The notes beneath the pieces were generated by a model. The model did not search any database. It was not told the origin of the DNA and saw only the letters and a list, made by a program, of their open reading frames with translations. A stretch of 64,000 bases of DNA, taken from Nemertoderma westbladi. Its lineage: Eukaryota > Animalia > Xenacoelomorpha. The stretch spans positions 1-64,000 of the forward strand of contig JAUCBJ010005260.1 in NCBI GenBank assembly GCA_032718475.1, read 5' to 3'. The translations under genes were made by a program, and so were the position numbers. Positions 11,982 to 51,381 of the stretch are shown here, piece by piece (position 1 is the stretch's first letter; each line of letters opens with the position of its first letter).

Positions 11982-11993
11982 TTAAAGGATATA
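11982..11993 (+). promoter_or_regulatory. Non-tRNA primer-binding site of A (TTAAAGGATATA)
   Basis: Exact reverse complement of LTR-internal 11229-11240 (TATATCCTTTAA); starts at the first base after the LTR. Confidence 0.7.
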
Positions 11994-20337: not shown

Positions 20338-20348
20338 GTAGGAATATG
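20338..20348 (+). promoter_or_regulatory. Non-tRNA primer-binding site of B (GTAGGAATATG)
   Basis: Exact reverse complement of LTR-internal 19275-19285 (CATATTCCTAC); starts at the first base after the LTR. Confidence 0.7.
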
Positions 20349-21144
20349 TTTTACTGAACTACGGTTTGGTAGGACTAAAGTTATTTGAAAATTTTGTATT
20401 TTGAGGTAAAAAATTTATATTTGATTAGCTAAGTGCTAATTTTTTGAAATAAAATTTGATTTGAACCGCGTGTAAAATATTTTGGAATTGAATACCGGTG
20501 TTTAAAAAGGGTTTAAATACCATATTGTACCGGTACAAAATTTCGTAAAGTAAAACCTAACTCTTTTGTTTTTCAGGATTCAGAACTCATTTCTAGACTG
20601 TAACGGGAGCAAGACCGTGTTTAGCAAGTTTGGGAGATAGATAACCCAACAACTTTGGTTGGGAAAATCGCGTTTCGTCCGCAACGTTAAAAACGGAAAG
20701 GTTCACGTTCGGTTTGTATCTGGGAATCTGTTTTTCTGGAGAATTATTGGAGTGGGTGAGTTCGAAAAGTTGCATAAATAAGTTAGGCATTACCGTATTA
20801 GTTAAAATTATTGTGGGTTCCACTGTCTCAAGTATTTATGCATTCCGTATGATTTCTTTGTTCATTGCTGAATTAGTCCGTATTATTGTATTTAATTTAC
20901 CTTTTGATAACGCATATCGTTATCCGATTTATTTGTTATAAAATTGGCCGCTAGGCTAATTTTATTATATACTTATTCCGTGACATTTATTTGCTGTAAA
21001 ATTGGCCGTTTAGGCTAATTTTATCCATCTGCTATAAAATCGGCCGGTAGGCTAATTTTATAAGACTGTAATTAGTACCGTTTTATACAAATACGGTAAA
21101 CTCGATACTTTGACACTCACTTCACTTGACTTACAACTACCGAA

Positions 21145-24100: not shown

Positions 24101-27100
24101 TCGAATACCAGCGAGAGGAGCGAGGAGGATTCCTAAAATTAGAAGATGTGTACCTTTTAATATCCAGGGAGGCGGTAGTAGAAACTCGATCTAACTATAC
24201 CGACCAGCACATCGTGGCAGAAGGAATCACACTGCCATCCTCCAGCCGACAAAAACCCCAGACAACATCCACAAAGACGGCCACTTATGCCACACCGACG
24301 GAATCACGACAATTCTCAGACGGGAATAGAGTATCTGCGCCCATTGGAACGAAACAGACGAGACAGCAACTCAGCGCCGACTTCAACGGCTGCCAATACT
24401 GCGAACATTTAGGTAAGCGGTATATTGGTCACAAGTTACGAGGTTGTCGACAATTTCGCGAGTTGAACTCAGAAGAACGACGGCTGCAGATACGGCCACT
24501 GGACTCTTGTTGGCGGTGTACGCGACACGGACACGTCCGTAAGGATTGCCCAAATACCGACACTTGTCCATCCTGTGGACGCAACCACGACGGTCTGCTC
24601 CACACAGACAGCCACACGCCGACGAAACGCTTCGCCAGGGAACACCCGGAAGCAGCAGCGAGATGTGATGCGGCTTACCGAAAACGAGAATCGAAAACGA
24701 CTCCGACTTTCGTGACCCATATAGAGGATTGCTTTTCAGAACAATCCGGATCGTCGGACGAAGAATCAGAAGACGACGAATATTCAAATGGAGACGAACA
24801 ACCGTCAATCGCGCTTCTAACCACTGACCAACTGAAGGGATTCAGTGTAATCCCGATTAAGATCACTGGCACGAAGGGGAGTAAGAGGATCTACGCGATT
24901 CTAGATTCAGCCTCATCTCACAGTTACGTGGATGAAAAGATAGCTGACGTCGTAACGGATCTAAGACAAGGTAAACACATCAGTTATACAGTAAGTAGTA
25001 TGCACGGCCAGCGTGCAATACCAGTGACACGAGTTAAGTTGGACTTAGACTCTCTTCTTCCAAAATCGCAACACAGCGAGAGGGAGAGGTCTTTGTTGCC
25101 CTTTAGAGATCTAACCTTTGCTGCCACGAAGGACTTTAGTAACCTACTAGGTCCAGTGCCGGAACAATCTCTGGAGGACCGTAAGTATTTCAGACACCTT
25201 GGTGTACCCGAATGTCCTGTCAATTATAGATCGGTAGCAATGCTGATCGGGACGGACCAATTCAACCTACATCAGGTGTGGGAAACCAGACCATCGGCAG
25301 TTGTAGCGGGAAACGCATACGCCTGCAGAACGCCGATAGGGTGGTATACTCGAGCGCCTGTGCGCACACTAGACGTAAGTGACGAGGAAGACGATGTACA
25401 GAGTACATGTAGTTTATTAACTACAAATTCAATTCATTCCTTTTCACACGACGTGAACCATACTACACTACAGTCGACAAAACATGACAGACGTGTAACT
25501 AGTATGATAAGTCACAAGGAGCAGCTAACCCACCAGGTGAGTTTAGAACTTGGGGAGAAGACGAATCAGCTAGAGATTCCATCGACGACAGATGATAGGC
25601 TTGCGAGTCTACCTACCCCAATAACCTCAACAGTGCCCGTCGACATCGACGATGACGCGTTGAAAATTCATCAGTTGGAACAAGCCGCCTTGGACAAAGA
25701 ATTAACGGAGAAGACTATCAGGTGGTTAGAACAAGATACAGCTGAACCTGGTAGCTACGAACCTTGTATGTCGGAACAGGAGAAACAATCTCTGAAGATC
25801 ATGGAAGAGACTATCCGACAGACGGAGGACGGACATTACGAGGTGGGGATGTTATGGCGTAGCCAAAGTCCTAAACTTATAAATAACTACCCACTGGCTT
25901 TGAGACGTCTACACTCAATACGACAACGTCTATTAAAGGACGAGAAAGCCCATCTGCAGTACAACACTCAGATGGAGACGTATTTGACTGAAGGATACGC
26001 TATCCGAATGACTAACCCGGAGCGAGTGACCGACCAGACATACTACCTGCCACATCACTATGTGAGACATCCCGACAAACCAGATAAGGTACGCGTAGTC
26101 AATGACTGTGCGGCTCTGTTTGAGGGAATGTCCCTCAATAGTGAGTTGATGGATGGACCGAACATGAATAATTATCTTATGGGGGTGATTATGCGCTTCC
26201 GTCAGCGTCAAGTAGCCTTTACTTGCGACGTTGAAGCGATGTTTCACCAAGTAAAAGCGTTAGAGCGAGACAGAGACAGTTTGCGGTTTCTCTGGTATCC
26301 GGAAGGGGACTTAAGTCTACCACCAGCGACTTACCAAATGCAAGTTCGCGTTTTCGGTGCCAGAGACAGCCCAAATTGTACGATGTACGCCTTGAAGCAA
26401 GCCGCTAGAGATCAGAAACATCTGTATGACCCAGAGATAATTAGAATTGTAGAACGTGACTTTTACGTTGACGACGGATTACAGAGTTGCGACACAGTAG
26501 AACGTGCTACAACAGTAGCACATCAATTACGGGACTGCTTGGCGGGCGGAGGTTTTAACCTCACCAAATTCGCCTCAAACAGTGCCGAATTAGTTGACTC
26601 ATTCGGAACTACTGAGCGTGGAGGTGGTGACATAGACCTAGAGTTCGAACCACTACCGACGACTAAGGTGTTGGGGCTCTTTTGGGACCCAAACACAGAC
26701 AACTTTCGAGTGAAGGTGAGACTGGACAGTCAAGGAGACACACTGACCAAGAGATCATGCTTGTCAAAGTTGAGCCGATTGTTCGATCCGTTAGGATTCA
26801 TCAGTCCAGTAATACTGCAAGCTCGCATTTATATGCGCAGTATATGGAAGGATGGACTAACGTGGGACGAGCCGATCTCATCAGACCAAGTGGACTTATG
26901 GAAGACCTGGGAGGCGGAATTGTCTTCGCTAGAGGATTATTTCATACCCAGGGTTTACTTTCCATTACAGAGTACATTTCCTGACAACTTGGAACTACAC
27001 TGTTTTTCTGACGCCAGTGACAACGGTTTTGGTGTGGCAGCGTATTTGCGCAGACAAGTAGAATCGGACGAGTTCGATGTTTCGCTCATTACTTCTAAGG

Positions 27101-29856
27101 CTAAGACCATGCCCACTAAGTATATGACGACACCACGAGCCGAGCTACAAGCCGCGACCCTGTCAACCACCATCGTGAACCTCATACAGACAGAACTACA
27201 GTCGAGTTTACAGATATTTTATTGGACTGACGCGACGTTGGTTTTATTTTACATAAACAACGACACACTCGAATTCAAGACATTCGTAGCTAACCGTCGC
27301 GCAGAGATTCTAGACCGTTCGATAAAAGAGGATTGGCGACATTGTCCAGGACCACAAAACCCAGCTGATATTGCGTCGCGAGGAATGATGCCTGAGGAAT
27401 TCTGTAAACCGGAGAACAAAGAGTTTTGGCAACACGGACCCCAGTTCTTGCAGAAATCGACACAAGATTGGCCTCCGTTATACGACAACAAATCCAACAC
27501 CATTCCTAAGGACGCCGAAATCAAGAAACCAAAAAAGGGGAAGACAAAGAAAAAGACGACGGCGGCAAAACTCAAGAAAAAACCGAAGGCGAAATGGAAA
27601 GATATAACTTCAAAGGTCAAGAGAGGAAGACTTGCGAGCCTTTCTACACCAGACATATCGCCAGACGGTCAACCAGACATATCGCCAGACGGTCAACCAG
27701 ACACGTTACTAGACAGTCAACCAGACATTTTGCCAGACATATCACAAAATGTTCCACCAGACGCTAGTAACACACTGACAAACAGTAAAGCCGCAGTTTC
27801 TCTATTGGAGCGGCCTTCTATTGACAAACAACTAGATACGTTACCAGACGTATCGCCAGACACATTACTAGACAGTCGACTAGACACTAGTAATGTATTG
27901 ACTAACGATAAAGCCGCAGTTTCCCTATTGGAGCAGCCTTGTATTGACAAACTACCGATTTTGACACACTTGAGCAACCATAAGCACGGTGAAACCTCAT
28001 GTATTACAGATGTGGGTAGTACCTACGCTAATGTAAATACAGGTGTTACTTTGCGCTCAAGAGACATACCGAACTTACAACCTACGGTGAGACCTGGGAT
28101 TAATGTCGGCAGGAAAATAAGTTTACCGAAACCTGCTGACCCCATAGAGTTCAAACCACCATTAACGATCGACTTACAAAGTACCGACAATCAAGGTAAG
28201 AGGACAAAGGGGGACAAATTACTTGTAGACCCGGACGGATCAACAGTCAACAAGGGAATACCTACCGGCGGACCCGTGGGCCCTTCTAGTAATTTAAAAC
28301 CTTCCAAATTCTCCATTGACTTACCTGATGACGTCACAAATACTTACGTCGACCGAATTGTAAACTTAACAGACTCTTGGTCAAACGCTTGCCGAAAATT
28401 AGCGTGGATTGTACGTTTCGTACAATACGTTAAAGGCAAACGTGACTTTACACGTCGACTTACATTGGCTGAGATTGACAGGTGTGAGATTCAATTAATT
28501 CGCCATTATCAACTGCGATATTTCGCGCGCGAATTCACATCTATAAATCAAGGTCAACCAATCAAGTCGTCACCAATACTGAGTTGGAGTCCGATTATTT
28601 ATAATGGCTTAATTTGTCACAAATCTCGGCTTCAAAACATTGACTTTAACACAAACTTTAGGTACCCAATAATAATACCGCAACATCACGAACTACAACG
28701 TGCAATGATACTGGACGCACATTTACATCTGAAACACGCTGGAAGACACCACTGTCTTTCCTACTTACGTACTAGATTTGTATTAATTAGACCCAGTAAA
28801 GCATTAAGTTCAGTGACACGTACGTGTATTATTTGTAAAAAGGTACATTCTAGAATAGGTACCCAAGAAATGAGTGAACTACCACAAGCACGACTTCAAG
28901 CATTCAGACCACCTTTTACAGAGACTGGAATTGATTGCTTTGGTCCCATACATACGAAACGTGGACGTATACTAGTAAAACGCTGGGGACTGATTTTCAC
29001 ATGTATGTCCAGTAGGGCAGTCCACATTGAACGTGTGATGGATCTTTCCACCAACGCGTTTATACTAGCACTGCGGCGATTTATCGCTAGACGCGGACTA
29101 GTAAAATGCTTGTACTCAGACCAAGGGACAAACTTTGTTGGTGCTCGGAATGAGATTGCTAGAGCCTTTAAGAAATTAGATCATGATCAAATCTCGAACG
29201 AACTGCAACCTCACAAGATTGTTTGGAAGTTTAATCCTCCAGATAGTCCTTGGAGAGGCGGAGTCTGGGAGAGATTGATTAGATCTATCAAGACAGCCAT
29301 GGCAAAGGTCATTCCAGTAAACCACATACTAACAGACGACCAACTGACAACATTGTTTGTTGAAATCGAGGCAATACTAAATACTAGACCAATAGTATTA
29401 GTACCCGATAACAAACAATCTCAGTTTGCTTTGACACCGGCACACCTGCTTATGCAGGCACCGACCACATTGACGCCGATTTCCATTCCAATGGAAAGCG
29501 ATAGTTACGGTAGAAAAGCTTGGAAAATCACGCAACTACTGGCTAACAAATTCTGGGAAATATGGCAAAACCATTATTTGCCCTCTATTTCTGCCAGAAC
29601 AACTTGGTATAATAACACCCGCGCATTAAAGCCGGGAGATCACGTGCTGTTGGCAGAAGTGAATCTAAAAAGACGCTTCTGGATAACAGGTGTAATTTTA
29701 GCCACACATCCATCTATGGATGGAGTGACAAGGACTGTGACGGTACGGACAATTGACGGTCGTACAGTAGACAGACCGACTCAACGTCTCGTACTTCTTG
29801 AAGAGACTCGTAACGAGTCTGGAGACTACAAATCTCCACCTAATACTAGTAAATAA
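21145..29856 (+). CDS. gag-pol: BEL/Pao Gag-Pol polyprotein (Gag, 3 CCHC, PR, RT, RNase H, IN)
   Basis: PPKFSGSSKHW; CWRCTRHGHVRKDC; AILDSAS; YYLPHH...KVRVVNDC; FYVDD; LFDPLG; CFSDAS; NPADIASRG; HLHLKH...CIIC; GIDCFGP, SDQGTNF, GGVWERLI. Single ORF in PR-RT-RH-IN order, typical of BEL/Pao. Confidence 0.97.
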   Translation: MSDKQDYTKNTQTDYDSCDADKSAAEEQQGKTREPTEPTPCASPVHPTGVPDAVVRGDGRTEDFLTVPQPRYRETEMVSSAGSTESVVRSVGGYMAHITRSIGEDQRILDGLTAPMSRFEFYTLQVRVQSKVYKSVDNLVGLQDLARQRQDMDTQLRILEKLMITREKLIQFKSTIRQIQQEQADQLLGESVSDELLQPEEEQELYRLDGQLKHLTDHLRMCGEDVGDLETVPEYTRETPFAQIESAPGILNQSLVSIRSEICEGSMVTSEVARQQQQFYRQQHEMEEQAQLLMIQTAVEEEKIRVANVARISHLQEQAELEAAEMERLELDIAQQAAAAELAQRTATAELERQTAAAAAAAELERQTAAAELERQTAAAELERQTAAAELERQRLVSEARVEMKTRQIKAQQAIRQAEFEAQQQQTEQREKEVKLRFELEKRARELAETKENLDLLARDRSMRSRDGHDLDQLEVRHRQIQERKKEGSIGAPGRERQLVKDVCQRFPQVTHMFAPVTTKEPVSIAGSSDISPIHGATEHRFVIPNEFIPPRATSSPIPKVKVSNPPITDRSSLLVRPALLTTKQVSPPLTPKPVTHYDYPMTFRPTRPLDSNAVVRPPFNQFTSQSTTSRKTCEPTEQWRTVDTRPVQFTSQSTTSRKTCEPTEQRRTVDDVPKRAVRIRTTQRTRARRPPYPDDSSTSSESDYPKREVFRTGAADEYKRERSDNSFADNPPQNTPTQKALQPTDAISTQQFADILRPVVNKLAQIEERLEEVQTDSSRNTEFEHNRHPKAPQRPVPSNPTSYQGKAPRRENINQVTNQGRETLNVAEEIAKFAARQGLPVQQPPKFSGSSKHWHTFVDYIESQIAVCAFTSREKFNYLLQTLSGEPKRLAETFVGVPDAFELAYDRLTSIYGGTVSMARSVIEELCKGGAITKPVDLLKLADEIKNAITTLRSIGQLDYGNTPTVLLKIIGRLHHRLRRGWRKVEYQREERGGFLKLEDVYLLISREAVVETRSNYTDQHIVAEGITLPSSSRQKPQTTSTKTATYATPTESRQFSDGNRVSAPIGTKQTRQQLSADFNGCQYCEHLGKRYIGHKLRGCRQFRELNSEERRLQIRPLDSCWRCTRHGHVRKDCPNTDTCPSCGRNHDGLLHTDSHTPTKRFAREHPEAAARCDAAYRKRESKTTPTFVTHIEDCFSEQSGSSDEESEDDEYSNGDEQPSIALLTTDQLKGFSVIPIKITGTKGSKRIYAILDSASSHSYVDEKIADVVTDLRQGKHISYTVSSMHGQRAIPVTRVKLDLDSLLPKSQHSERERSLLPFRDLTFAATKDFSNLLGPVPEQSLEDRKYFRHLGVPECPVNYRSVAMLIGTDQFNLHQVWETRPSAVVAGNAYACRTPIGWYTRAPVRTLDVSDEEDDVQSTCSLLTTNSIHSFSHDVNHTTLQSTKHDRRVTSMISHKEQLTHQVSLELGEKTNQLEIPSTTDDRLASLPTPITSTVPVDIDDDALKIHQLEQAALDKELTEKTIRWLEQDTAEPGSYEPCMSEQEKQSLKIMEETIRQTEDGHYEVGMLWRSQSPKLINNYPLALRRLHSIRQRLLKDEKAHLQYNTQMETYLTEGYAIRMTNPERVTDQTYYLPHHYVRHPDKPDKVRVVNDCAALFEGMSLNSELMDGPNMNNYLMGVIMRFRQRQVAFTCDVEAMFHQVKALERDRDSLRFLWYPEGDLSLPPATYQMQVRVFGARDSPNCTMYALKQAARDQKHLYDPEIIRIVERDFYVDDGLQSCDTVERATTVAHQLRDCLAGGGFNLTKFASNSAELVDSFGTTERGGGDIDLEFEPLPTTKVLGLFWDPNTDNFRVKVRLDSQGDTLTKRSCLSKLSRLFDPLGFISPVILQARIYMRSIWKDGLTWDEPISSDQVDLWKTWEAELSSLEDYFIPRVYFPLQSTFPDNLELHCFSDASDNGFGVAAYLRRQVESDEFDVSLITSKAKTMPTKYMTTPRAELQAATLSTTIVNLIQTELQSSLQIFYWTDATLVLFYINNDTLEFKTFVANRRAEILDRSIKEDWRHCPGPQNPADIASRGMMPEEFCKPENKEFWQHGPQFLQKSTQDWPPLYDNKSNTIPKDAEIKKPKKGKTKKKTTAAKLKKKPKAKWKDITSKVKRGRLASLSTPDISPDGQPDISPDGQPDTLLDSQPDILPDISQNVPPDASNTLTNSKAAVSLLERPSIDKQLDTLPDVSPDTLLDSRLDTSNVLTNDKAAVSLLEQPCIDKLPILTHLSNHKHGETSCITDVGSTYANVNTGVTLRSRDIPNLQPTVRPGINVGRKISLPKPADPIEFKPPLTIDLQSTDNQGKRTKGDKLLVDPDGSTVNKGIPTGGPVGPSSNLKPSKFSIDLPDDVTNTYVDRIVNLTDSWSNACRKLAWIVRFVQYVKGKRDFTRRLTLAEIDRCEIQLIRHYQLRYFAREFTSINQGQPIKSSPILSWSPIIYNGLICHKSRLQNIDFNTNFRYPIIIPQHHELQRAMILDAHLHLKHAGRHHCLSYLRTRFVLIRPSKALSSVTRTCIICKKVHSRIGTQEMSELPQARLQAFRPPFTETGIDCFGPIHTKRGRILVKRWGLIFTCMSSRAVHIERVMDLSTNAFILALRRFIARRGLVKCLYSDQGTNFVGARNEIARAFKKLDHDQISNELQPHKIVWKFNPPDSPWRGGVWERLIRSIKTAMAKVIPVNHILTDDQLTTLFVEIEAILNTRPIVLVPDNKQSQFALTPAHLLMQAPTTLTPISIPMESDSYGRKAWKITQLLANKFWEIWQNHYLPSISARTTWYNNTRALKPGDHVLLAEVNLKRRFWITGVILATHPSMDGVTRTVTVRTIDGRTVDRPTQRLVLLEETRNESGDYKSPPNTSK

Positions 29857-30512
29857 TTAGGAGTTTACAAATAGATTCCACGTACCTGTACACCGTAGTA
29901 AGGACAGCGGTAGAATTCCATTGTCTTTATATGTGAACATTGAGGGTAGTACCCTTATGTGTCACATAGGAGCGGGATTTGTAGGTATAAGAAATGGAAT
30001 TCTACTTGGAACTCACAATATTGAGACATTTTCGAAATTTTAGACAATCCATTTGGATTTGAAAAATTTTTAAAATTTTCTCCAGTGAATAGATTCCAGG
30101 GTACAGTCGGGTGGAACTTAAAATTAGAGAAACAAGAGAGGAAGACTTGCGAGCCTTTCTTAAAATTTTAATTAAATTTTACACGGTCTTGTTTCAATAA
30201 GTTACGTCAAAATAGACTCCCCTATATTTATTACTAATTCTTGACTGCTTATTTTCTGATAATAGTTTGGGATCAAAAAGTGAGTATTTTAGACTCACGG
30301 CCAGTTTAGCCCAAATTCGTTTTTATTTCGGCAAAAATTTTAGATAAGAAGCAGCGTGTCATTAAAGAAACCCTAGATCTTAGGCTATGGGTAGGAGGTT
30401 AGAGCGTTGTCGAGCCCAAAGGGCAGACGAAACTCTCACGTCTCCTCACAACTAACTACAAACTCTGTTGTATTCCCTCTAGTAGTAATGATTATGTAAC
30501 TACACCCTAATT

Positions 30513-32215
30513 ATGGAGAAAGGGATACAAGGAGAGCCGAGATGGGGATATGATATCCAAGAGGAGGCAGCAGCGCCATTCGAAAGATTTGGAGCCAAGG
30601 ATTACACTATATTTGGTATAAAGGAATTATCAGAAAGTACAGCGAAGCTCGCAAAGACAGCAATGCCTTTACTCGAGCAGGATTTAGCATATTTCGAGAC
30701 GTGTATCTTCGCTGTGCGGGATCTCTTATCGAAAGACCATCTATGTTTACATTGTTACCCTATGAAGGAGAACGTATCGTGGAGATTATGGATGAATCAC
30801 GGCAGACGCGCGCGCCTATCGGTCACCTTGGTGATGAATTCGAAGTAACTACTACGATCGCCGACGATCCTTTAGAGGAACTTCTTGAGATAGAAAGGAA
30901 CCTCCCGAAGAAATCTCAGACGGAGATTCGACAACTTGAAGCAACAGATGCTATAGTTTGTATACAACCTTCAGAAACCTACCAACCCATAGACCCAGAT
31001 GATTACGATTATAGTATGGGAGGAAGCGCTCGACCGATTGGAGATCTTATATACGAACGAGTGTGGTACCCTGCCAATACGATGTGTAATAAATGTGGCG
31101 TCGCTGGACATCATATGGCAAAGTGCAGTGGAAAGCACATTACTACGACTCAGCTAATCTGTGGATGGTGTGGGGATCAAGGGTCTCATACCTTTTATAC
31201 TTGCTGGAGATTTATGGCTCAATGTACTTACTGCAATATAAAGGGACATCGAGCATCTGAATGCCAACTAAGGGACATACCTTATGAACACGAATCTGTA
31301 AAACTCGTGAGGAAGTTATTTGATGAGTGGGAAGATTTAGCCGACGAACATGTATCGGCACAAAGAAGACGGTTTCCGATGAGAGCGCATCTCGGATTTT
31401 GGGCGGTAAATCCTCAAACGATGATGTCGGAAGGATACATCTCCGCTATGCCTCAGTACGACGAACTTATCGAGGTTGTCGATATTTTGCCCCACGACAG
31501 CGGATTCCGAGTGGTGCGCGAGTATCTGTTACAGATTCACCCGGATAACAAAAACATGTGGAATTTTCAGAAAGTCGTAAATCGTATCACGTATGGTGAA
31601 TTTGATCGTTTCCGAACCGAAAAGCGGAATAAAGGAGCTTGGTTAACCGTCGCATGGGCGTACCGAGCCGCGTTTTACCATAAACGTATACGAGCGAGCG
31701 TATTCGAGGAAGAAGAGGTCCTAGAGGCGACGAATATATCAGCCACTCCGGTTGCGCCGTCTGCACGTCACCCTCGGGAGGACGGGCAGGGTAGGATCAT
31801 ACGGGTCCAGAAGGTGGGCCAACAATTGAAGAAAATTATTAATGTAGAAGAACGCAAGGGAGTTGAGCCGACTATTCGAGTTACTCGGGATACGGTATCA
31901 CTTCCAAGAGAACCGGTAGGAGGATCGGGACATACACCAGCTGATCAACAGGGGGCGCAAGCTACTCTTGGGTCTGCGTCGTCCGCTTCTCACGCGTTCC
32001 CAGACGTTCTACCAACTGTAGCGACGACTGATCGGTCACGAGGAATTGGTCGAGGTTTTGGGATGCCAAATAGACGAATTTGCGAGGAAATAGTTGCACC
32101 GTCTCTCAACGTCCCAAGTAAACCAGTGACTCGCCCCATTAGTCCCATATCGCGAGCAAAGTCACCTGTGCGCAGTTTTCGAGGACGCGGCAGGGCTCGA
32201 TCTACTAAGCGATAA
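30513..32215 (+). CDS. Accessory ORF of B after pol: triple Zn-knuckle protein with basic tail (two overlapping frames, 30513-30848 and 30701-32215)
   Basis: CNKCGVAGHHMAKC, CGWCGDQGSHTFYTC, CTYCNIKGHRASEC; homologous to the C-terminal part of ORF 39860-41749; branch-like ACTAAC (30451) and pyrimidine-rich AG (30481-30482) upstream. Confidence 0.75.
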
Positions 32216-32329
32216 AAGGGAGGGCAAGGGTGGACGGAAGACTCGTGGGCCTTTCTTATGATTTGTGATTTATTTTGAATTATATGTTTTATATTTAGAA
32301 AATTTAGTAAACTTATATTTTATATTTGT

Positions 32330-32800
32330 GCTTATTTCGAACTTATGCAATTTGTATTGTTCCGAATTTATGAAATTTAGAAATAAGAACTCATATTTAG
32401 TAAACTTATATTTAGTAAGAATTTATATTTTATATTTACGTGATTATTTCGAACTTATGCAATTTATATTATTCTGAACTTATGCAATTTATATTATTCC
32501 AAACTTATGCAATTTGTATTGTTCCGAATATTATGCAATTTATATCTTATAAGCAGTATTTGTATTTACAGTAAAAGAGAAAGTTTTATAGACAGAAAAT
32601 TTGTGCTCAGAAAGACTCATATTTGTAATTATTCCAAACTTATGCAATCTACATTTAGGTACGAAAGTATTTGTAATTACTTGAATTTATGCAATATTTG
32701 GGATGCAATAGTAGATGGAAGACTCGCGAGCCTTTCTTATTGTTTTCATTTATTTGTATTTGTAATTGTTTGAATTTATGCAATATCTGAGATGCAATAG
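32330..32800 (+). repeat. AT-rich degenerate tandem repeats in the 3' UTR of B
   Basis: Recurring aacttatgcaattt(a/g)tatt units. Confidence 0.75.
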
Positions 32801-33033
32801 ATTTATATTGGTGAATTTAATTTAGATTTATATTGTACTTACTTAGTAAAGCCTTAAATACGTAAAGTTTGAATTTGTAATTATTTTTGTATCGAATCAT
32901 TACGTAGAAAGGAAGTATTGTTTGAAATTTAATTGTAAATATGTAAGTACGCCCTAAGTATTCTATAGTTTGATTGATTATTGGTGAAAACCGTATATTT
33001 TAAGCACGATAATATCCTGTTTTCATGGAGCGG

Positions 33034-34956
33034 TATAGAATTATATTCCCTAAATGCCGTGGATTTTCAAAATTTTTATTTTATTCGAATTAACTTTGTA
33101 AAGATTGCTTTGAGTTCTCATTAGTATTGGTTCTATCTATTGTGTATCTATCGGTCAAGTGGTTCAGTAGCTCAGTTGGTAGAGCGTTGGAAATTATATG
33201 TGTAGTAGGTATCGAGTTCGAATCCTAGTAAGTGCGAATTATTTTTTGTGCAGAATTTCAACTCATTTAAATTAACCGCTACAAATTAATTGCATTTGTC
33301 TGTACCAATAAGGCTGTAGTTATTTGATTGTAACCAATGTCGTGCAAGTTATATATTAGCTGGACCAATAAGCTATCTTTAAAACCTTGTTAGAACCCAT
33401 AGAACAATCGAGAATTTTCTCGATTGATTGCAGCACAAATTTAGTATATAAAGGTGCGATTCGTTCATTAGTTATCAATCTCTCAATCTTGTATTTCAAT
33501 CTATACTTCTCAGATTTATTCTGTCGTGCTTAGTTTATTCTCAGATTACATTGTATTATAATTGTATCTTCTGTAATAAAGTCAGAATATTCTCTCAGCT
33601 TTTCTGTTTTACTATGAATTCACTACGGTGAACAAACTCGGGGACAGGATGGCCAGCTAGAGATCGGGCCGCAGCAATGAACGGGAACATCACGGGAATG
33701 TAGACGAGAGACAACCCGCAATACCATCTAGTGTTATTCGCCCATCGCCTGAAAGGTTAGACAGCGTTCGATCCTTGCTACCTAAGTATAAGACCAAAAG
33801 ATCAAAAGGTAGACGCAGTGACACGCTGTAAGCCCAAAATTACATCATAGGGACTGTACTGTCTTGATTCAGGAAAAAACCGCAGTAGACCTTCATATTC
33901 CTACGGGGGGAGGGAAAGCGCAGGCAGATACTAGTACGCAGATAGGACGTAGGCACACCGGTACAAGGCATACACATTGGTTAGGGTGCAGCAAACTGTA
34001 CGCTTAACTCTTGCTAAGTACAGGTGTGTGTGCGACTATTTGCCGTACAACGGTGTCCAGTGCATTAGAACTTGTAGGCTAGGGGGGTTGCTGTGTTTTC
34101 ACCTGAATTGGGATTGTACCGTTCAGGCGGTAGGGCAGTTTACGCTAGGCGCAAAATAAATTGAGGCTATCAGGGATATACTAACATCTACCGTGTCCCC
34201 GCCAACGCCCTAATAGGAAGTTACCCGGACTACCTGGGTGACTAAAATTCTAGATAGGAGCCAGGATAGCTATTAGTACCCGTACGCCTACAGTAGTAAA
34301 CTAACACATCTCTTCTTAGTATCAGGGACCTGGTACCTAAAATTGCCGAATTCTGGGCGTAGTATTAACCTTATGCCTGAATTTGAGTCCTGGAAATACG
34401 CAAGAGGGGAAGGAACCTTACCATTCGTGAGTATTGGACCTACAAGTTACAAATTAGAATATTCGTAAAATGCACACCGTACCCAGTAATTATATATGTG
34501 AAGGAGCAAAACTGCTTTTGACCGTTCAGAATTAACACACGCGCGTTAGAAATTATTTACACCTCAAAATATATAAAATTAACTTAGTCCGTACTGTGCT
34601 TTGCCCGCTAGTTAGACATCTCCAAATCTGCTCTGTACCTAGCTAGCGTCCTTTCGCCCAACCATATAAATCACACCGCGGCAAAGTATACGAGCCTCTT
34701 AGTCCGTCAGTGAGTCAGCCTGATTTTAGGATTCGCTGCGCGGGATTTTGTTTTATCGAAGTTTGTCCGCTCGTAGACTGTTTTCTGCCTCACCGGTTAA
34801 AAGAGATAGATACTGCAATATATTCGCTTACTTAGGGTTTACTGTTTTGGTGAGAAGGTCGGATTTATGATTTGATTTACAAACTTTACAGTAGGATATT
34901 GCAGGTATTGTTACCGTCTCTTCCGATAGTAGGAATAGGCGTATCTCTCCAATTTA
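33034..34956 (+). repeat. 3' LTR of element B
   Basis: Direct repeat of 18415-20337, preceded by GGAGCGG, followed by TSD CATCG. Confidence 0.93.
33161..33247 (+). ncRNA. tRNA-derived Pol III unit in 3' LTR of B
   Basis: Copy of 18542-18628. Confidence 0.65.
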
Positions 34957-34961
34957 CATCG

Positions 34962-35848
34962 GCCAAAACGCGCATGAGGCGCTGGAGACATTAGAGAAAC
35001 GACCTACTCAACCGCAACCACTTCAGACCTATGCGGTAAGAACTAGAGTAGGTTGGTACCTTACTGGACCTTCCCGTAGAACGCTCAGGGAAAGACTGCT
35101 TCAAGATCGCGTCTGCCAGGTGAGTGAATGGGAAGATGATACTAGTGAGGGAGACGACCCAACTGAGGGAACACCACACTCCTCAGATAATGACAATCTT
35201 AGCTCCAATGTAGATCAATGGAGATATTGCCCCAAGAAGTTTAATCCAACGGACATCGCTTCCAGAGGAGCAACTCCTCAAGAACTGACAGATACTATAG
35301 ACCGGTTAGGTGAACCCGACTTCCTGAGTAAGGAGAATGAATGGCCTCCCCATCTTACTCCGACTGAGATTAGACCAGCCAAGGGAGCGGAGAAAGTCGA
35401 ACCTGAAACCCGGACGGGTGGATCGGAGTTATTTGAACCCGGGATAGATCTGTCGGTATTACATGTTGCCAGGGACGACGCCGTGGATCTGAGCCTCCCC
35501 TCCGCGAGTGGATCCTTCATGAAGATCAGAGAGAGCGATTGGAGCTCTGGAACATCAGACGTCTCGCAGGGACTCTCACCTCTCCTGCAGAGAGCGACGG
35601 ACCACTATAGCTCCTGGAATCGGCTTTGTGACGCCGTCATATACTTTGAGCGATGTTTCTATCGTCACTATTCCAGGACGAAGAGGAAACCTGGAATTGT
35701 ATTCAGGATGCAGCGACTCAATCACCCAGTCGGTCGTTTGTGTTTATCGGAAGGGAATGGAGGACTCTCAGGAAACTATGGAAGGCAAGAAACTCTTCCC
35801 ACGACCACTTCCCTAATCCAACCGACATCTAGGGACTCCCCAACTTAA
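34962..35848 (+). pseudogene. pol: Remainder of pol of A: protease end fused in frame to RNase H end; RT and integrase core absent
   Basis: ...RTRVGWYLTGP...DQWRYCPKKFNPTDIASRG...YSSWNRL; no YVDD or integrase motifs seen. Confidence 0.85.
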
Positions 35849-37495
35849 TATCGTTCGGAGTGGGCGTGTGACTCTATTATTTTATATTATTTTATTATTT
35901 TTATATTTATGTATGTATTACTATGTAATTTTATTATAATCGTTTTATTTAATTTAGTAGAATATTATTTAGCGATTATTTTGTAGAATAGTGCAATATA
36001 TTCGTGTTTATTACGTACATACTTACTTATATTATATTTAGTGCGACGGCGAAGAAATAATTATTTTTCTCTTTCCTTACTGTCCGTATTATATTATAAA
36101 TACGTAACTACAGTAAGATGAAATGTCCGTACTTATTAAAGTACAATAAAGCCACTACTATATTTAAGTATTATTGGTAGGCAGAGTATTAGGAATGCAA
36201 AGTTCAGATCCTCGTGTCTCGGCTAAACCAAGCTCTGGGTAGACCTTGGAAACGACTTGCCTCTTCACACTGACATTGCTTCGTGCGATATTGCTCTCAT
36301 ACCGTATATTAAATAATACATATAGTAGCGTGATGTCCCTTTAACAGTAGCGTATAACGCAAAATAAATCTGTTAAACCCTTTGACCATCTGTAATTCTA
36401 GTCGATTAAGATATCGCGGCACCCACCGATATACTTGAAAGACAAATTCTAGAATCAGTGGTTAACGTCCCCAGACAAGTTCTGGAATAAATCGGTGCCC
36501 ATCTCAAATATTAATTAGTTAATATTTACAAATCAAATAAGTCAAAATCTGTAAAATTCAGATCCTTCAACGATTCTAGTCAATTAAGATATCGTAGCAT
36601 TTACCGATATTCTTAAAGAGACAATTTTCTTAGAATTAAGGATCTTGTGTTCCTAGACATGTTCTAGAATCAAAATATGCCCATTTAATTATCAAATAAT
36701 AAAATTTCAGGGAATAAATTTAAATTCATGTCTTTTAATGAATTTAATAAATTGCCATTTTACGCAATTTATAAAGTTCCCAAAATTCCATTAATTAATA
36801 GATCAAGGGAGCGGAGATTTATATTATTATGCGTGTGCGTGTACGAAAGTCTCCCAAACATAGTTAATAGCCGATAAAATTCTTAAAGTCATGTATAAAA
36901 CAGAACATTGACTATTAAAGAATACTATTAAATAACATCCCAGATCTGTATGCATTGGAATCACCCTAATTCTACCGCTAGCTTTGCATAATGTCACCAT
37001 AGCAACAACCACGCTAGAATTAGAATTGAGTTAACGAACAATAGAAAGCTTGTCCCATAGAATAGCATAGGGAATAAATAGCGCACTGCTAGTATCCAAG
37101 GATACATAATAATACAGTGACATTCTGGAAGGCATTGACTAACGGACAAATGGCCCGAATGTGCGTAGTTGTGACCAGTTGTGTGGTATTTGTGAGTTTA
37201 TAGGTGAATGTTACTGCTAAAGTGTGTTTACAGTAGCTAGTCGCAATCGTAAAATAACCTAACTCTCCAAGGAATACCTGAAGTACATCTAAGCCTTTGG
37301 GACGGACAGTGGAGTGACTTGTGTCGGTTATCGTTGTAGTTGTACGGCTACGTCGTTGGCGAAAGTACAGCTACAGCGGTACATCGGCGCTGAAAATCTC
37401 TTACTGTCCGGGGGCAAGGGAGAAATAGGCAGCGACGCCCGCTCGCCTAACGATATATAAACTCATTATAATATTGGTGAACTTGTATAGCAGAT

Positions 37496-40400
37496 ATGAC
37501 TGAATTAATAGAAGATGATCTTGGTATCAGGGAGAGATATACTCTACCTTTACAAGCGTTTGTCGATAGCTTGATACGCGGCGACGCTGATCCAACTATT
37601 ACGGAGGACGATGGTCGTTATATCGAACCGCCAATGTCCCAGGAGCAACTTACGCGTGAATTGGATTATAGAAAGTTCACTGCTCGCTACATGCATCGTA
37701 ATGGTACGTATATGGACTTCTTGACCACTGGTCATCCTATTGATTTACACGACACCGACGATGTAGACACCGAAAGGGAAATGGTTTTGTTTAAATATCA
37801 TGCCCAGCGGAGTCGAAACGATAAATCGAGAATAGAACACGAGAACTCTATTCGAAACAAACTCGAAATAGAAGACGTTGAAGAACCTGATAAACGTAAC
37901 GGTTTCAACGATTATCTAGAATTCTTACGAGAGACCTATCTCAATGTTGCCAGTCAACAAAACCTCGAAACTCGATATCCCCAAGGTATACATCCAGATC
38001 CTATAATGGAACTCAAACGGCTCTATTTTACGATGATGTATCTTACCGCCGATCGACCGCTACCTGTCGTTCCAGATAGCTTCGAACAGATGGAGGAATA
38101 TTGTAAAACTGGAGAGCGATCACCCGCGTTTCCCCTTCAAGACGTGCGTCTTTGGTATTACTGTGACGAATGCCCTAGACCTAACCAGCAAATCGAAAGG
38201 CATAAACATCCTCGGAGACGTTGCGCTAAACACAGTTTTACGCGATATACTTATGGGAGTTTCGAGCGTAACCTTTTCGACGTATCACCTACGGTCGCGC
38301 GCCTTAAGCGATCATTGAATAAACCCATGATCAGAGTTCCGGAATACTCGGTCAGACCTCCCCATTCACCAGTGATACCTCAAACTCTAGATCCTAATAG
38401 TATTATGGATCCTCCCGAACTGTACTCACTGTTCAAAGACCTAGTGTTACCTGAACAGTTGATTGGTGGCACTCCGGTAGTGGGTTCGTTGGATATTCGC
38501 CAACCTTACCTCGCTGGACTAGGACGCGGTCATTTAATATCACCGTTTAATCCCTACAACCGTCCTGGCCTTCCTCCGATCCAACCTGTTACAGAAGTTG
38601 AAGAGAGCGTGATACGAAATGCATTGGACGCTATTCGGCAGAAAATCGGAAAAGGAACTTACGATTGCTTGGAGAAACGTAAATTGCAACAACAAGTCCA
38701 AGCGGTGAAAGAACTAGCTTTACCCCAGTTCGATAGAGAAATACAAAATCTAGAGGAAGACATCGAACGTGGACGAACCTACTCTTTACAGGAATTCCTG
38801 GACGAGCGCTTGCAGCAACAAGCGGAGGAAAATCAGCTCAAGGAGAGACATATAGAGCTGACGGAGAGGGAAGAAGCAGCTTTAGCCCAACCAGAAGCTC
38901 AAATTCTCGTGACGGACCTCTATTCCAAAACGATTCTCCACCCCTCGATGGTTCCTCATTTTAAAGACAAGCTCTTTGCTACGGTACAGCCTCAACCGGT
39001 TAATACCGATCTCAGATCTCACGAGCTCGTTGCTGACGCTCCTATGCTACAACGTCCACCCGTAGAGGCTGCCCGTGTCGATGGCGTACTTGTTGAGCTT
39101 CCGGACAATAGAGCGGATCTTGTCCGTCGCATGGTGCACGATGTTAACATACGCGCTAGACCTTTGCCGGACTCATTTTATGGAATTAAAGATCATCCTT
39201 ATTACGTTAATTTAAAGCAATATTACATGGTGAAACCAGAAGATCCTACGCATAGTCTGAAGTTTCTACCATTGATCAATCCTCTCGACCTTGTCGAACT
39301 CGAACAACTACAAAAACACCTAGATCAGCTAGTTAAACTAAACTCATTTAGAAAACCGTATAATATTTCTAGAATAGAGAAAGAAATATCACCTCCGTAT
39401 AATCTTGATGGCTTTATTAAAACTCGATTAGTGCACTGGAATCTCGACGTGTTATTCGAGGAAGAAAGAATAAAACGATATGGCGATGTGGAAACCTATA
39501 CTACACAATGCTTAAAGTATAGAGATTTACCCAATGCTAACGAGTGCGCTACTTTGTGGCATCCAGTGGGAATGACTCTCGAAAACGCCACTAAAGAATG
39601 GAACGAGACTCTTAACGTTATCGAGATGTATGGCGTTGTTACTTACGACAACGAAGGTAGCGTTCCGGTGGGAGAATTAGGAACTACGCGAATGATACAT
39701 ATACGAGGACTCGCTGGTTCTACCCACGTATTCACACGAGCGTGTTCTGACGTGATTGATTATTCTTTTGAAACTCTTACGGAGATACAAAAGAAACTTT
39801 GACATGGACAATTCGAACTCGCGCAGCGTTACGTCACCGACACCGAACGCAAACCGGCCATGGGTATCGATGGATCAATGTTACCCCAACCTGTACTCGC
39901 AATGTTGTTTAACGAAAGAATTCTAAAAATCGGCTCAGCTGTTTATGGAGATCTCCAAAACGACTTCCGGAATATGGAGAACATTCCATACCCTTTCGTT
40001 GATACTCAGCTGATTGCTCCTTGGGCCGAAGGCCGAGGTTTCTTTCGCACTATGTATGCCAATACACCCAGCAGCATTACTAAAGTACAACGGACATCCA
40101 TCGGACATCTTGCCTTTCAAGAATATGGTTGGAATTTCAAAGTTGGAAATCCTATAAATTACCAGCAAGTATATGGAGATCATTACTCCCGTTTATATTT
40201 TGACGGACCATTAACTGCGCCTGGTGCCGTATATAGCTTTATGAGTGTTCCACTTCGCCCTTCCTTAGCTATATACACGATCTTTGAAAACGCAGCACTT
40301 GCCGGTTGGCTAGCCGATGTGTGCAGTCGTACCATACGCGCTCACCCGTTAATACTTGGAACTAAACTCGCCAAGTTAGACGAACACAATAAGTTCATAC

Positions 40401-41749
40401 GTTTCGAATGTTTCCGGCGCTTTCTGACTCCGTTCCTTAACATCGACAGTCAGTTCAAAGATCGCGCGCTGACCAAGCTCAGTCTTAGAGACTCAGCTGC
40501 GGAGAAACTGAGTAGCGCTGGATTTGCCGTGTTTCAAGACGTTTGTATACAGAACTCACATTCATCTGTTATACAAAGACCCCGAATACCTACAGGTTAT
40601 TCTGTCGTGGAAATACAGACAGTGGGTCCACTTACGGAAACCGACGCACCAACTTCGTCTATGCAGCTGGAGGATGAACCAGTATGCTTGGAATCCGAAG
40701 CGATTCAACCTACGGCTTCTCGGAGCAGTGACAATGATTATGTCATAGAGTGGTATCAAGGTCCACAGCGTCTCACAGCGTACGATTATCGACACGCCAA
40801 CCACGTTTACCGAAAACGTTGTCGATTATGCGCATCGAGAGACCACTTCACTCCTCTCGACTCGAGCGTACCTTGTTCCTATTTCCTCGAACAACCGATG
40901 ATGGAAATATATTGTGCTTATTGCCGGCTTAATAACTCTCATATATTTGCCGTCTGCCCACAGTTTATGACTCAATGTCACTACTGCCAACTTAAAGGAC
41001 ACGAAAGTTACAATTGTCCCTTTAATCGCGATTTAGAGAGCGTAGACGAGATGATCACCCTGCGATACATCCGAGCTTGGGAAGCGAACGCAGATTTACA
41101 TTGCGAATCCAGACATCGCTATTACCCTGGACGAGCTTACGAGGGAGTTTACGCGTTCCATCCTTATCTATTCGCGTCGATTGAACAGAAAACACGCGTA
41201 CCAAGTTACGAGTTAATGAAGCGTGTTGGTGAGTGTATTTCCACCAAGTTTGTCAGGAAATACCTGAGAAACGTTAATCCTAATGATATAACCACATATC
41301 ACCTGATCAATTATATCCGTCAGGACCCTGAGTATGGCGACATTTTCGTGAACTCGCATCCTGAACTCCAGGAAGTATCTCGGCGCCCATATGAATACCG
41401 AACCCGAGAACGCGAGCTGGAGAGAACCATTAAACCGAGAAAGTTCCTCACCACTCACGGTCCACCCACCGCTAGTGTCCAGACGACCCGTCAAGGACCC
41501 GTAGGAGCTGCTGTCCTGAGACGCGCTCTAAAGGCCGTTAGACCTCACTCCACTGAGGTTGATATTAATCAACCAGGTACCTCGACCGGCGGGTATACCG
41601 ATCGTAACCCTGCACCTTCTGATGCAATTATATTGCACCCTTCGCCTAGGAGCTACAGCCCACCTCGTAAAGTGGCTCGCCCCAAAGAGAAAAGGACTCT
41701 TGCTAGCCTCCAGAAACTGCGTAAACGCCGTCCGCGCAAGAAAGACTAA
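37496..41749 (+). CDS. Large accessory ORF of A (~1417 codons, one in-frame TGA at 39800-39802): unknown N-terminus, DEDDy-like 3'-5' exonuclease, Zn-knuckle domain, basic tail
   Basis: ORFs 37496-39802 and 39860-41749 are in the same frame with 19 sense codons between them. Exonuclease-like motifs VVTYDNE, LPQPVLAMLFNERILKIGSAVYGD, FVDTQ, PLRPSLAIYTIFENA straddle the stop. Confidence 0.75.
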
Positions 41750-41827: not shown

Positions 41828-43019
41828 TGTAAAAGCTTTTGTGGGATAACTGATTCGTTTGCCTTGTTGGCCAGTTCCCCCCCAGTCGCTAAGAATACTC
41901 TCAAAGTGATCTACAGCTAAAAATAGTGCAAGTTACCAGCTTATTGGCTGATTTGCTGTACGCAGGCATCTGGGCTCTGTTTAATCGGCCAACAAGCCTA
42001 GGGAGGTTGCGTCATAGCCTTGTTTTGTATCTCCCAATAGAATTTGAGTTATCCTTGATGTTGACCTATCACAGAGTACTGAACTGAAAATTTCCTATCT
42101 CACTGCTCTTTCTCTGTGTTGAACGGGAGCTTCGTGGAATAAGGGAGTTGGTATCCTCGTATAGAGCAGTAGTCACGAGTTTTTCAAAGCCACGAAAGAA
42201 CGGCTTTTTAGTGTTTTGTGCTTTCTGCTTTTTAGCTCAACACTAGTAGGTTTAATCATAAGGACATATATCCTTTAACTGACCAAACGCACCTGATTAC
42301 TGACTGATTGTCTTAACTCAAAACAAACTGGCACGATTGATCTGTCAATACTGTGTACTGCTATTTGTTGTCGGTTATTCATTATATTTGTTGATGAATT
42401 ATTATATTGGAATAACGAGAAATAACCCCGACACCCAATATTCTTGATATACCGAAGGTAAGAGAGAAAGGTTACCAATAACGATTGTGACTTATGTTAA
42501 AGTGGTTTGAAGTGAATCTAATGTTATTTGATAGACCCTACATGAGTCAGTCTGTGTTCCTTTTATATGTGACTAAAATCAGTAAAGATTGGCAGATTAG
42601 TGTGCAGTATTGTGCAGCATTGTGTGCGAGTGAGTCTGTTAAAGAAGCATTCCTAAAGAATGCGCCATATATGTGAATTATAATTAAGCCATATCGTTGT
42701 GAGTAGTTTAAGTCATAACTCTGTTTATGTAGATAAAGTGCCACGTCCTAAAGGAACTGTTAATATTCCCGAAGGTAAATAATATTGTCAGAGATTATAT
42801 AATACTGTCAGTCGAATAATACATTAGGCTTACATAGCAATAAAATTAAACCGTCGAACCCAATCTCCCGGGAATATCCAGCGGGTGAATGGTCGCGCAC
42901 GGATTGGTTTCGACTAGTGTAGTGAATCAAATACTTGTCATAGGCTAAAAAGCGATTTAATATCTAGAAGACATCTTAATTTGGCGGGTTAAACTGCCAA
43001 AGGTCTGAAAGCGCGAACA
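41828..43019 (+). repeat. 3' LTR of element A
   Basis: Direct repeat of 10790-11981, preceded by GGGAGCGG, followed by the TSD. Confidence 0.95.
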
Positions 43020-47900: not shown

Positions 47901-48126
47901 TTTTCCTATGGAGGGTAATACAGCCTACCTGATTGCAGCAGCCAACTGAGTGGGGGTAATAAGCCTAAGCTGTAGTCAATGGTTACACAGAGGTAGGACA
48001 AGACATGTGACACAATATTGCTTGCAGAGACGACAAATAATTCCTCTCAAGAAATATATTGGTTTTGTAATATTACGCTGTCAGAGGTCCAAGTTGTAAA
48101 TAATGGATCTGAGGGTGAATACTACT
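44930..48126 (-). mobile_element. Decayed BEL-related element D, copy 2
   Basis: 45709-48126 is near-identical to 5215-7790 with indels; continues into further coiled-coil ORF fragments (44932-45615); left boundary uncertain. Confidence 0.7.
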
Positions 48127-51041: not shown

Positions 51042-51061
51042 ATCTCTTTCTTTCCCTTTAT

Positions 51062-51270: not shown

Positions 51271-51381
51271 ACGTTGACTATACGGCCGGCTTCATGCAGA
51301 GAGTTATATACTTCGCGTGTTAGTTTAGAAAGATACAAAAGGGCCTTCAGGTACACAATTAACCGCTGGTGCATTAGTGTC

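Follow-up and report, generated by a model that had tools for sequence, protein, structure and literature searches.

A zinc-knuckle gene at the env position of two nested BEL/Pao retrotransposons, with evidence of splicing in one of them

Third genes and priming in described LTR elements

The ICTV profile of Belpaoviridae/Semotivirus knows only gag, pol and env genes plus tRNA priming from an 18-nt tRNA-Arg/Gly site, in elements of 4.2-10 kb with LTRs of 0.2-1.2 kb (PMC8742986). The elements described here, A and B, have in common with these the PR-RT-RH-IN order, the Peptidase_A17 and DUF5641 domains, LTRs and a third gene after pol (PMC8742986). Common to both sides is also a Gag with DUF1759 and three knuckles; the family includes members that do bear env (Tas, Roo, mosquito elements). 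On the other hand, their third gene is not env-like, their PBS is self-complementary, and B, at 16.5 kb and with TA..TA LTRs of 1.9 kb, is larger than the profile allows.

Non-env accessory proteins are on record from other LTR elements. In the portion of the Cer1 study that we draw on (Gypsy/Ty3, C. elegans; PMC10309623), CERV resembles HIV-1 Rev, and the present gene, in being made from a spliced mRNA while the genomic RNA stays unspliced, and it likewise has a Cys-rich, putative RNA-binding part. Unlike the A/B proteins, CERV has a leucine zipper at its N-terminus in common with Gag, besides H, M and G domains with a C4-type loop, whereas the A/B gene lies after pol and encodes CCHC knuckles, CERV being compared by its description only. 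Bdelloid LTR elements carry a non-env ORF3 (GDSL, DEDDy, CC, TM) after pol that is typically spliced, as here, and the non-autonomous TelKA2n has kept ORF3 with most of pol missing, as in A; yet these are other lineages with other proteins, and the cited part of that survey contains no zinc-knuckle ORF3 (PMC5408684). As for priming, the PBS of Tf1, Tj1 and sushi can pair with part of their own 5' LTR; the published rule, in the section cited, asks for 10 bp or more of complementarity, beginning 0-5 bp past the LTR (PMC6317226). Those elements are Gypsy chromoviruses (plus Copia TAR in plants), unlike the BEL/Pao elements considered here. A conserved non-env accessory family with a spliced RNA of its own, together with self-priming signatures in three elements, broadens the repertoire of the little-studied Belpaoviridae. 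Neither a zinc-knuckle third ORF nor self-priming in BEL/Pao was found in the literature searched, which left most subscription journals, Repbase entries and supplements outside and is no proof of novelty.

Two nested elements share a gene downstream of pol

Within the 64,000-nucleotide stretch of DNA analysed (the window), B is an intact BEL/Pao retrotransposon (18415-34956) nested inside A (10790-43019), whose gag and protease region it interrupts (Table 1). LTRs and target-site duplications are present as in Belpaoviridae, with TA..TA termini in B, and the B LTR pair differs by 1 mismatch. In B, all three Gag-Pol domains exceed the Pfam cut-off in the correct order (Peptidase_A17, E 9.5e-42; DUF5641, E 4.2e-20; DUF1759, E 1.9e-10), while in A DUF1759 does so (E 6.5e-12) and the remnants align with B pol. 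A and B are distantly related BEL/Pao retrotransposons, with Gags only 23-27% identical; judged by their predicted pol domains, both belong to Belpaoviridae, as a variant. A third element, C, is a relative of B whose 3' end lies beyond the window. Of seven metagenome_contigs loci that matched B RT-RH (29-40% identity), none extends far past pol and none matches the A/B 3' ORFs.

Table 1. Features of elements A, B and C in the window.
Feature	Position	Strand	Remarks
A 5' LTR	10790..11981	+	TG..CA, 1192 bp, 5-bp target duplication
A putative self-primer	11229..11240	+	12 nt complementary to PBS
A PBS	11982..11993	+	directly after LTR; not a tRNA-type TGG site
A gag + protease	14162..18414	+	two frames, split at 133-bp tandem duplication (16950-17215)
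A pol remnant	34957..35848	+	single open frame over two large deletions
A upstream 3' ORF	37496..39802	+	768 codons
A zinc-knuckle ORF	39803..41749	+	648 aa; own strong-context ATG 39860, giving 629 aa
A zinc-knuckle ORF, parts	knuckles 40820-41017; conserved domain 41078-41287	+	basic tail after
A 3' LTR	41828..43019	+	
B 5' LTR	18415..20337	+	TA..TA, 1923 bp, 5-bp target duplication
B 5' LTR signals	TATA 18826; AATAAA 18956, 19536; splice donor after 19136	+	
B putative self-primer	19275..19285	+	11 nt complementary to PBS; inside intron 1
B PBS	20338..20348	+	lost in first splice
B leader exon, non-coding	20577..20755	+	179 nt without ATG, between canonical splice sites
B gag-pol	21145..29856	+	single open frame; Peptidase_A17, DUF5641, DUF1759
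B acceptor for 3' gene	30440..30482	+	branch point, pyrimidine tract, AG; joint 20755 to 30483
B 111-aa ORF	30513..30848	+	first strong-context ATG of spliced RNA
B zinc-knuckle ORF	30554..32215	+	553 aa stop to stop; first ATGs 30743, 30788
B candidate slippery heptamer	30680..30686	+	sole one in overlap; register suits -1 ribosomal shift
B zinc-knuckle ORF, parts	knuckles 31085-31264; conserved domain 31328-31549	+	basic tail after
B 3' LTR	33034..34956	+	
C	1..5100	-	B relative, Gag 45% identical; runs off window
C parts	LTR donor near 4380; self-primer 4227-4218; PBS from 3008; leader exon about 2650-2498	-	

Downstream of pol, both elements encode three tandem zinc knuckles (of CxxC type, three per protein and not two), then a conserved domain of ~75 aa and a basic tail. 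An initial sequence-only reading had proposed a shared, non-env accessory protein with Arg/Lys-rich tails at this position, and the motifs that it quoted are present in both ORFs, which align at 84/319 identical residues (26%; BLASTP E 1e-21). When alignment scores were judged against 300 shuffles each, homology was seen in the knuckle block (106; shuffles 25.6+-4.9, maximum 46), in the post-knuckle part alone (89; 28.9+-4.6, maximum 47) and in a further motif upstream of the knuckles (60; 31.2+-4.4, maximum 51). These three blocks, together with the splice joints of B, bear out the shared gene. The tails are indeed basic (11 and 15 K+R in the last 40 residues of B and A, respectively) and unalignable (27 vs 33.5+-5.7), and the H-to-C spacer of the first knuckle is longer in A than in B. 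AlphaFold models of the proteins were poor (mean pLDDT 35.8 and 40.8).

The same reading had named a match to ordinary Gag fragments as one of two findings that would speak against its proposal. Each Gag does have a three-knuckle NC of its own; however, the knuckles of the 3' ORFs scored 35 and 44 against it, inside the shuffle range (maxima 47 and 51), as compared with 106 between the ORFs, and tblastn of the 3' ORFs against both gags within the window returned no match. An origin as a Gag nucleocapsid fragment was therefore rejected. That A had kept the gene while losing RT and integrase was likewise confirmed: in the pol remnant a single frame connects the protease end with the RNase H end across the first deletion, and the pre-integrase linker with the final integrase residues across the second. 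RT, integrase and most of RNase H have thus been lost, and gag, protease and the zinc-knuckle gene remain. The chance of both deletions keeping the frame is 1 in 9.

Codon usage in the B zinc-knuckle frame is coding-like (LLR +15.9 vs -10.6 and -15.0), and in the A knuckle region the own frame is not favoured (-0.2 vs -10.8 and -2.3). Besides, only 2 of 1192 positions differ between the A LTRs, and the openness of the ORF in this single copy is therefore no proof of selection. Synonymous changes made up 13/21 of the classed variants in gag-pol and 1/3 in the 3' ORF, too few to use (24 classed among 40 listed, with 631 further; two adjacent changes and non-coding ones excluded). We consider it highly probable that the zinc-knuckle ORF is a real, maintained accessory gene.

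Relatives are scarce. P0001, a 148-aa fragment without genomic context, was the sole one among 1.84 billion representatives, and it has 19 invariant columns with A and B, including the knuckle Cys/His and A-D, R, P and P-x-Y of the second domain. A three-sequence profile recovered P0001 alone among 108 candidates of a limited length range, and 0/74 candidates were homologous to B residues 165-385 in a word-indexed search over a limited length range. In Pfam, zf-CCHC stayed below its cut-off (17.3 vs 20.8 bits) and no other host family appeared; PHROGs gave one weak match of 4 proteins, and the viral_contigs search gave nothing. Weak PDB matches were to retroviral NC knuckles (E 0.17-0.32), and a PDB profile search had no Rev-like match. 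The B domain reached 0.88 at best in the Atlas, where CCHC/DUF8363 clusters from fungi scored 0.84-0.88 and the top one shared 171/256 features; scores below 0.9 are leads only.

In A, a further ORF precedes the knuckle ORF in the same frame, separated from it by a single TGA (39800-39802). Its codon usage is coding-like (LLR +65.6), and its ATG follows AG dinucleotides at 2-5 nt and a branch-like motif, a candidate acceptor. A word-indexed search over a limited length range identified homologues among 0/7996 candidates, and the Atlas held no usable match.

Splicing of B and a PBS complementary to the LTR

In B, canonical splice sites connect the leader with the zinc-knuckle gene, a new observation for this element. 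Two joints in contigs, 19136>20577 and 20755>30483, are both GT..AG, lie at sites that have a branch point and a pyrimidine tract, and are linked via one exon; each is supported by one contig with a short side of 25 or 29 letters, from run X1 only (1/4 runs), whose listed type, DNA, is a guess, the remaining three runs having depth 0. Self-primer and PBS are lost with the first intron, between LTR and leader, and the whole of gag-pol with the second, of 9.7 kb. The 3' gene is thus expressed in the manner of env, from a spliced RNA devoid of gag-pol and PBS. Reverse transcription from the PBS is thereby impossible for the fully spliced RNA. Conversely, genomic RNA and gag-pol mRNA must retain an intron with consensus sites. 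The leader exon and both flanking splice sites are retained in C at 66-69% nucleotide identity.

A fully spliced source RNA, as for Rev and CERV, was hence found in one run and for B only. With respect to env, the gene shares the position after pol and the spliced subgenomic RNA (splicing for B only), but signal peptide, TM anchor and homology to fusion proteins in Pfam or PDB are absent. In line with the sequence-only reading, which saw no obvious signal peptide or TM helix, the highest 19-residue hydropathy is too low for a membrane helix in B (0.78) and in the two ORFs of A (1.19 and 1.07).

In all three elements (3/3), the PBS pairs with the element's own LTR, over 12 nt in A, 11 nt in B and 10 nt in C, so the self-complementary PBS assumed earlier is real and extends to a further element. 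The complementarity in A was reached by 0/5000 shuffles and 0/2000 leader positions, that in B by 5/5000 and 3/2000, and a compensatory change in the pairing distinguishes B from C. In contrast to the tRNA-Arg/Gly site of the ICTV profile, none of them has a TGG-type site, an internal tRNA match being possible; a tRNA-like LTR stretch was called by neither Rfam nor ARAGORN. A, B and C thus conform to the published rule on the length and position of the complementarity and carry the signature of Tf1-type self-priming. B and C differ from Tf1, Tj1 and sushi in that both the TATA box and the first donor precede the putative primer, which would therefore require another start site or internal cleavage. 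A 25-nt LTR motif common to B and C had 0 matches in metagenome_contigs.

Possible roles of the zinc-knuckle protein

From the knuckles and the basic tail we infer that the protein may bind RNA. Our leading, though tentative, explanation is that, by analogy with Rev and CERV, it attaches to unspliced RNA of its own element and helps this RNA to leave the nucleus or to persist. In this model, the soluble, basic-tailed triple-zinc-knuckle protein that A and B encode at the env position would contact RNA with its knuckles and be directed by its tail to the nucleus, where it might license intron-retaining element RNA. The non-autonomous A would keep the gene since its own RNA needs it, and would borrow RT and integrase. 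There is precedent in CERV, which, in the portion of the Cer1 study used here, is a nuclear, Cys-dependent product of a spliced mRNA and is needed for export of unspliced RNA (PMC10309623). It was the one retrotransposon export protein found in our literature search, and the A/B gene offers a system for asking how unspliced RNA leaves the nucleus when an LTR element has strong splice sites. Yet many LTR elements achieve this export without such a protein. A leucine-rich export signal common to A and B was not found, nor was a compact basic cluster in B by the pattern used. Splicing itself is no specific pointer to export, since, according to the cited part of the bdelloid survey, the same kind of splicing serves env genes and enzyme ORF3s (PMC5408684).

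Less likely, the protein could shield element RNA from silencing or decay, as a piRNA/siRNA suppressor or a mimic of a host zinc-knuckle tailing or exosome adaptor. Such host adaptors are similar in outline, with tandem knuckles and a small helical domain. The fungal Atlas clusters hint in this direction and gene retention in non-autonomous A would suit a selfish benefit, but those scores remain below 0.9 and no host family emerged from Pfam or the 1.84 billion representatives.

The sequence-only reading had itself suggested a possible link to primer annealing or processing, that is a second nucleocapsid-like chaperone acting on the self-primer, which we regard as rather improbable. The LTR-complementary PBS of A, B and C, the compensatory change and the PDB matches to retroviral NC would fit this idea. 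However, what ties gene and PBS together is co-occurrence in the 2/2 elements with a visible 3' end, without independent lineages and with that of C beyond the window, and nothing further; both Gags already have three knuckles of their own. The cited part of PMC4600332, moreover, depicts Tj1, an element described as self-priming, with no more than Gag, PR, RT and IN.

That the protein, although not an env, takes over the role of env in the trafficking of particles or their spread between cells is more improbable still: position and splicing are those of env and the cited part of a Drosophila study presents elements with non-env spread proteins (10.1101/2025.03.14.642691), but the protein has neither signal peptide nor membrane segment, and knuckles and basic tail indicate nucleic acid. 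Equally improbable is a captured piece of a host gene carried without benefit, for which the in-frame stop in the A region, the frame discontinuity at the B start, the chance that P0001 is a host gene and the often heterogeneous extra ORFs of LTR elements (in the section cited of PMC6317226) could speak, against conservation at the protein level despite the divergent Gags, a dedicated splice acceptor and the failure of the above searches to find a host family.

Returning to the export reading, it is somewhat unlikely, if conceivable, that these elements represent a 'complex' BEL/Pao lineage that primes from its own RNA in place of a tRNA and in which alternative splicing and a new zinc-knuckle protein family, translated in B via a programmed -1 frameshift, act as a Rev-like switch between spliced and genomic RNA, so that a circuit known from complex retroviruses would have arisen independently in Belpaoviridae. 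No frameshift-stimulating structure follows the B heptamer (z +0.1 to +1.2). The same hexamer recurs in A, where a Gly-Phe pair accounts for it, given the stops just upstream in the other frame. In B, the 111-aa ORF overlaps the knuckle ORF in a different frame, the earliest ATG in the knuckle frame is at 30743, and codon usage favours the 111-aa frame until about 30680.

The knuckle gene shared by two nested BEL/Pao elements

B, the inner of two nested BEL/Pao retrotransposons, lies within the protease of the outer element A, and each is flanked by a 5-bp target duplication. The gag-pol of B forms a single open frame of 2908 codons with DUF1759, Peptidase_A17 and DUF5641. In A, a 133-bp duplication splits gag and protease, and the pol remnant matches the protease end, RNase H end, pre-integrase linker and last integrase residues of B (the linker and integrase-end blocks being weak, scores 30 and 33). 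As the sequence-only reading had it, A has lost reverse transcriptase and integrase yet kept the knuckle ORF. The two Gags are 23-27% identical across their aligned parts, and each carries independent Ala/Glu-rich tandem repeats in a coiled-coil-like region (15325-15552 and 22122-22339; 21-nt and 27-nt units). The LTRs of B end in TA..TA (18415-18416, 20336-20337) rather than TG..CA; the 5-bp target duplication beside them is clean.

Downstream of pol, the ORFs of A and B share 26% identity over 319 residues (E 1e-21). The three-knuckle array (score 106; maximum of 300 shuffles 46), the post-knuckle domain (89; 47) and, upstream, a short motif (60; 51) all exceeded every shuffle, which bears out the proposed shared, non-env accessory gene. 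Basic C-terminal tails were likewise confirmed in both ORFs, albeit without alignment, and so was the absence of a transmembrane helix, no segment reaching membrane strength in a hydropathy check. Descent from Gag fragments, the objection raised in advance, did not hold: the knuckle arrays scored 35 and 44 against their own Gag knuckles, within shuffle maxima of 47 and 51, and the Gag arrays of A and B scored 105 against each other. A conserved, soluble third gene with knuckles is real.

The HMMER profile suggested earlier, built from the two sequences of A and B and run against 1.84 billion representatives, did yield a relative, albeit a single 148-aa protein from a 724-nt contig (E 1.7e-4). 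This protein spans the second domain together with knuckles 2-3, and 19 columns are invariant across it, A and B. Word-indexed searches over limited length ranges gave no further relatives, and Atlas leads were fungal DUF8363/CCHC clusters scoring under 0.9. Pfam matched zf-CCHC alone, under cut-off; PDB matches (E 0.08-0.3) were confined to an unrelated repeat protein and the NC knuckles of retroviruses, and structure models were too poor for use. Their pol domains place both elements in BEL/Pao, but they depart from the Belpaoviridae profile in the type of PBS, in size and in their third gene. The BEL/Pao third genes named in PMC8742986, PMC3118150 and PMC13524379 are env-like. Literature searches of incomplete coverage turned up neither a description of this knuckle family nor a BEL/Pao case of self-priming.

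Coordinates of repeats, open reading frames and candidate signals
Feature	Position	Strand	Remarks
Element C	1-5100	-	extends beyond window; Gag 45% vs B; closer B relative
A LTRs	10790-11981; 41828-43019		2 mismatches in 1192 bp
B LTRs	18415-20337; 33034-34956		1 mismatch in 1923 bp
A candidate splice donor	11419		consensus match, sequence alone
A candidate acceptor AGs	2-5 nt before ATG 37496		branch-like motif nearby, sequence alone
B 111-aa ORF	first strong-context ATG 30513		frame other than knuckle frame
B knuckle ORF	30554-32215		knuckle-frame ATGs 30743 and 30788
A pol remnant	34957-35848		one open frame aligned to B pol
A 768-codon upstream 3' ORF	37496-39802		CxxC..H motif; coiled-coil-like stretch; strong coding-like codon usage
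A knuckle ORF	39803-41749
2.5-kb unclassified repeat	5213-7793; 45707-48126		two copies, 93-98% identity
Non-LTR RT fragment	49032-50459		RVT_1 E 1.2e-13
Its second copy	63613-64000		98%
Gypsy-like pol	50474-53859	-	decayed
AT-rich block	54952-60584		protein-primed DNA polymerase-like ORF 56557-60012, continued 59973-60584; 358-aa ORF upstream
TBP-domain match	62178-62735		E 3.7e-8

Splicing and translation start

When contigs from four public runs (X1, X2, X3, X5) were aligned to B, two GT..AG joints appeared among 15 of 57 joints listed, 19136 to 20577 and 20755 to 30483, linked via one 179-nt exon. Each is supported by one X1 contig (depth 250 and 211; short side 25 and 29 letters), with depth 0 in X2, X3 and X5. 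As X1 is by guess a DNA run in its listing, the joined form is mRNA or else a spliced copy made by reverse transcription; either one requires splicing. Both donors have GT-(T/G)-AG cores, and the acceptors a branch motif and pyrimidine tract. Besides, C keeps the exon, both flanking sites and the LTR donor (66-69% nucleotide identity), a conservation that, at the sequence level, is support independent of the reads. The third gene of B is spliced in an env-like manner; intron 1 takes out the PBS and putative self-primer, intron 2 the whole gag-pol.

No open ATG is supplied to the spliced RNA by either upstream exon. A codon usage model trained on gag-pol regions prefers the 111-aa frame as far as 30680 (+10.4 vs -1.9); past 30687 it prefers the knuckle frame (+5.6 vs -1.2). 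Homology to A in that frame starts upstream of ATG 30743. The sole slippery-type heptamer of the overlap, at 30680, is in register for a -1 shift; no stimulatory structure was found 3' of it, and no indels in the overlap among 12 of 58 listed. The two-frame start may reflect programmed frameshifting or reinitiation, or it may be a lesion that only this copy carries. A has a separate strong-context ATG (39860) for its knuckle ORF, beyond the single TGA ending the 768-codon ORF, for which no search returned homologues; this arrangement may represent two successive genes, readthrough or a recent lesion.

Possible roles of the knuckle protein

Given env-like splicing, genomic RNA and gag-pol mRNA of B must keep a 9.7-kb intron whose splice sites match the consensus. 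The nearest worked-out parallel is CERV of Cer1, described in PMC10309623 as a nuclear, Cys-rich product of spliced mRNA needed for unspliced RNA export. By this analogy, the knuckle protein might export intron-retaining element RNA, a reading we hold tentatively, at somewhat below even chances. Against it, the codon signal is flat across the A knuckle region, third ORFs of every kind are commonly spliced, and no export signal common to both proteins was found. The gag, protease and knuckle gene kept by A, its two frame-keeping pol deletions and its near-identical LTRs suggest a non-autonomous user, whose lineage would still make use of the knuckle gene; TelKA2n offers a comparison case (PMC5408684). 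An anti-silencing function of the knuckle protein is unlikely.

The sequence-only reading also raised a possible link to primer annealing or processing. Directly 3' of the 5' LTR, the PBS could pair with a stretch of the same LTR in all three elements, over 12 nt in A (reached in 0/5000 shuffles), 11 nt in B (5/5000) and 10 nt in C. Here, B and C differ by a compensatory change. The three elements fit the rule by which self-priming is predicted in plant elements (PMC6317226), whereas the ICTV profile (PMC8742986) gives a tRNA-Arg/Gly PBS. However, the link to priming is unsupported, because both Gags carry knuckles of their own and only two elements combine the knuckle gene with a self-complementary PBS; a primer chaperone is quite improbable. 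A spread factor and a passenger gene are each very improbable.

Further motifs and repeats

A tRNA-like stretch with A-box and B-box, for which ARAGORN and Rfam gave no call, lies in U3 of the B (18540-18610, +) and C (about 5075-5010, -) LTRs and recalls Helenus-type LTRs, as portrayed in PMC10886601. A 25-nt motif identical in the B and C LTRs, within a 74% conserved U5 block (20041-20180; 3375-3245), had no match in metagenome contigs. A 7-nt purine-rich motif adjoins each 3' LTR (33027 in B, 41821 in A) and recurs between pol and 3' gene (29969, 36808), resembling a central polypurine tract, with four further plus-strand sites in the window.

Pfam gave no match for the polymerase-like ORF of the AT-rich block, which, judged by its motifs, is likely part of a Maverick/Polinton. 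The 2.5-kb repeat contains minus-strand ORFs with a weak match to the coiled-coil part of A Gag.
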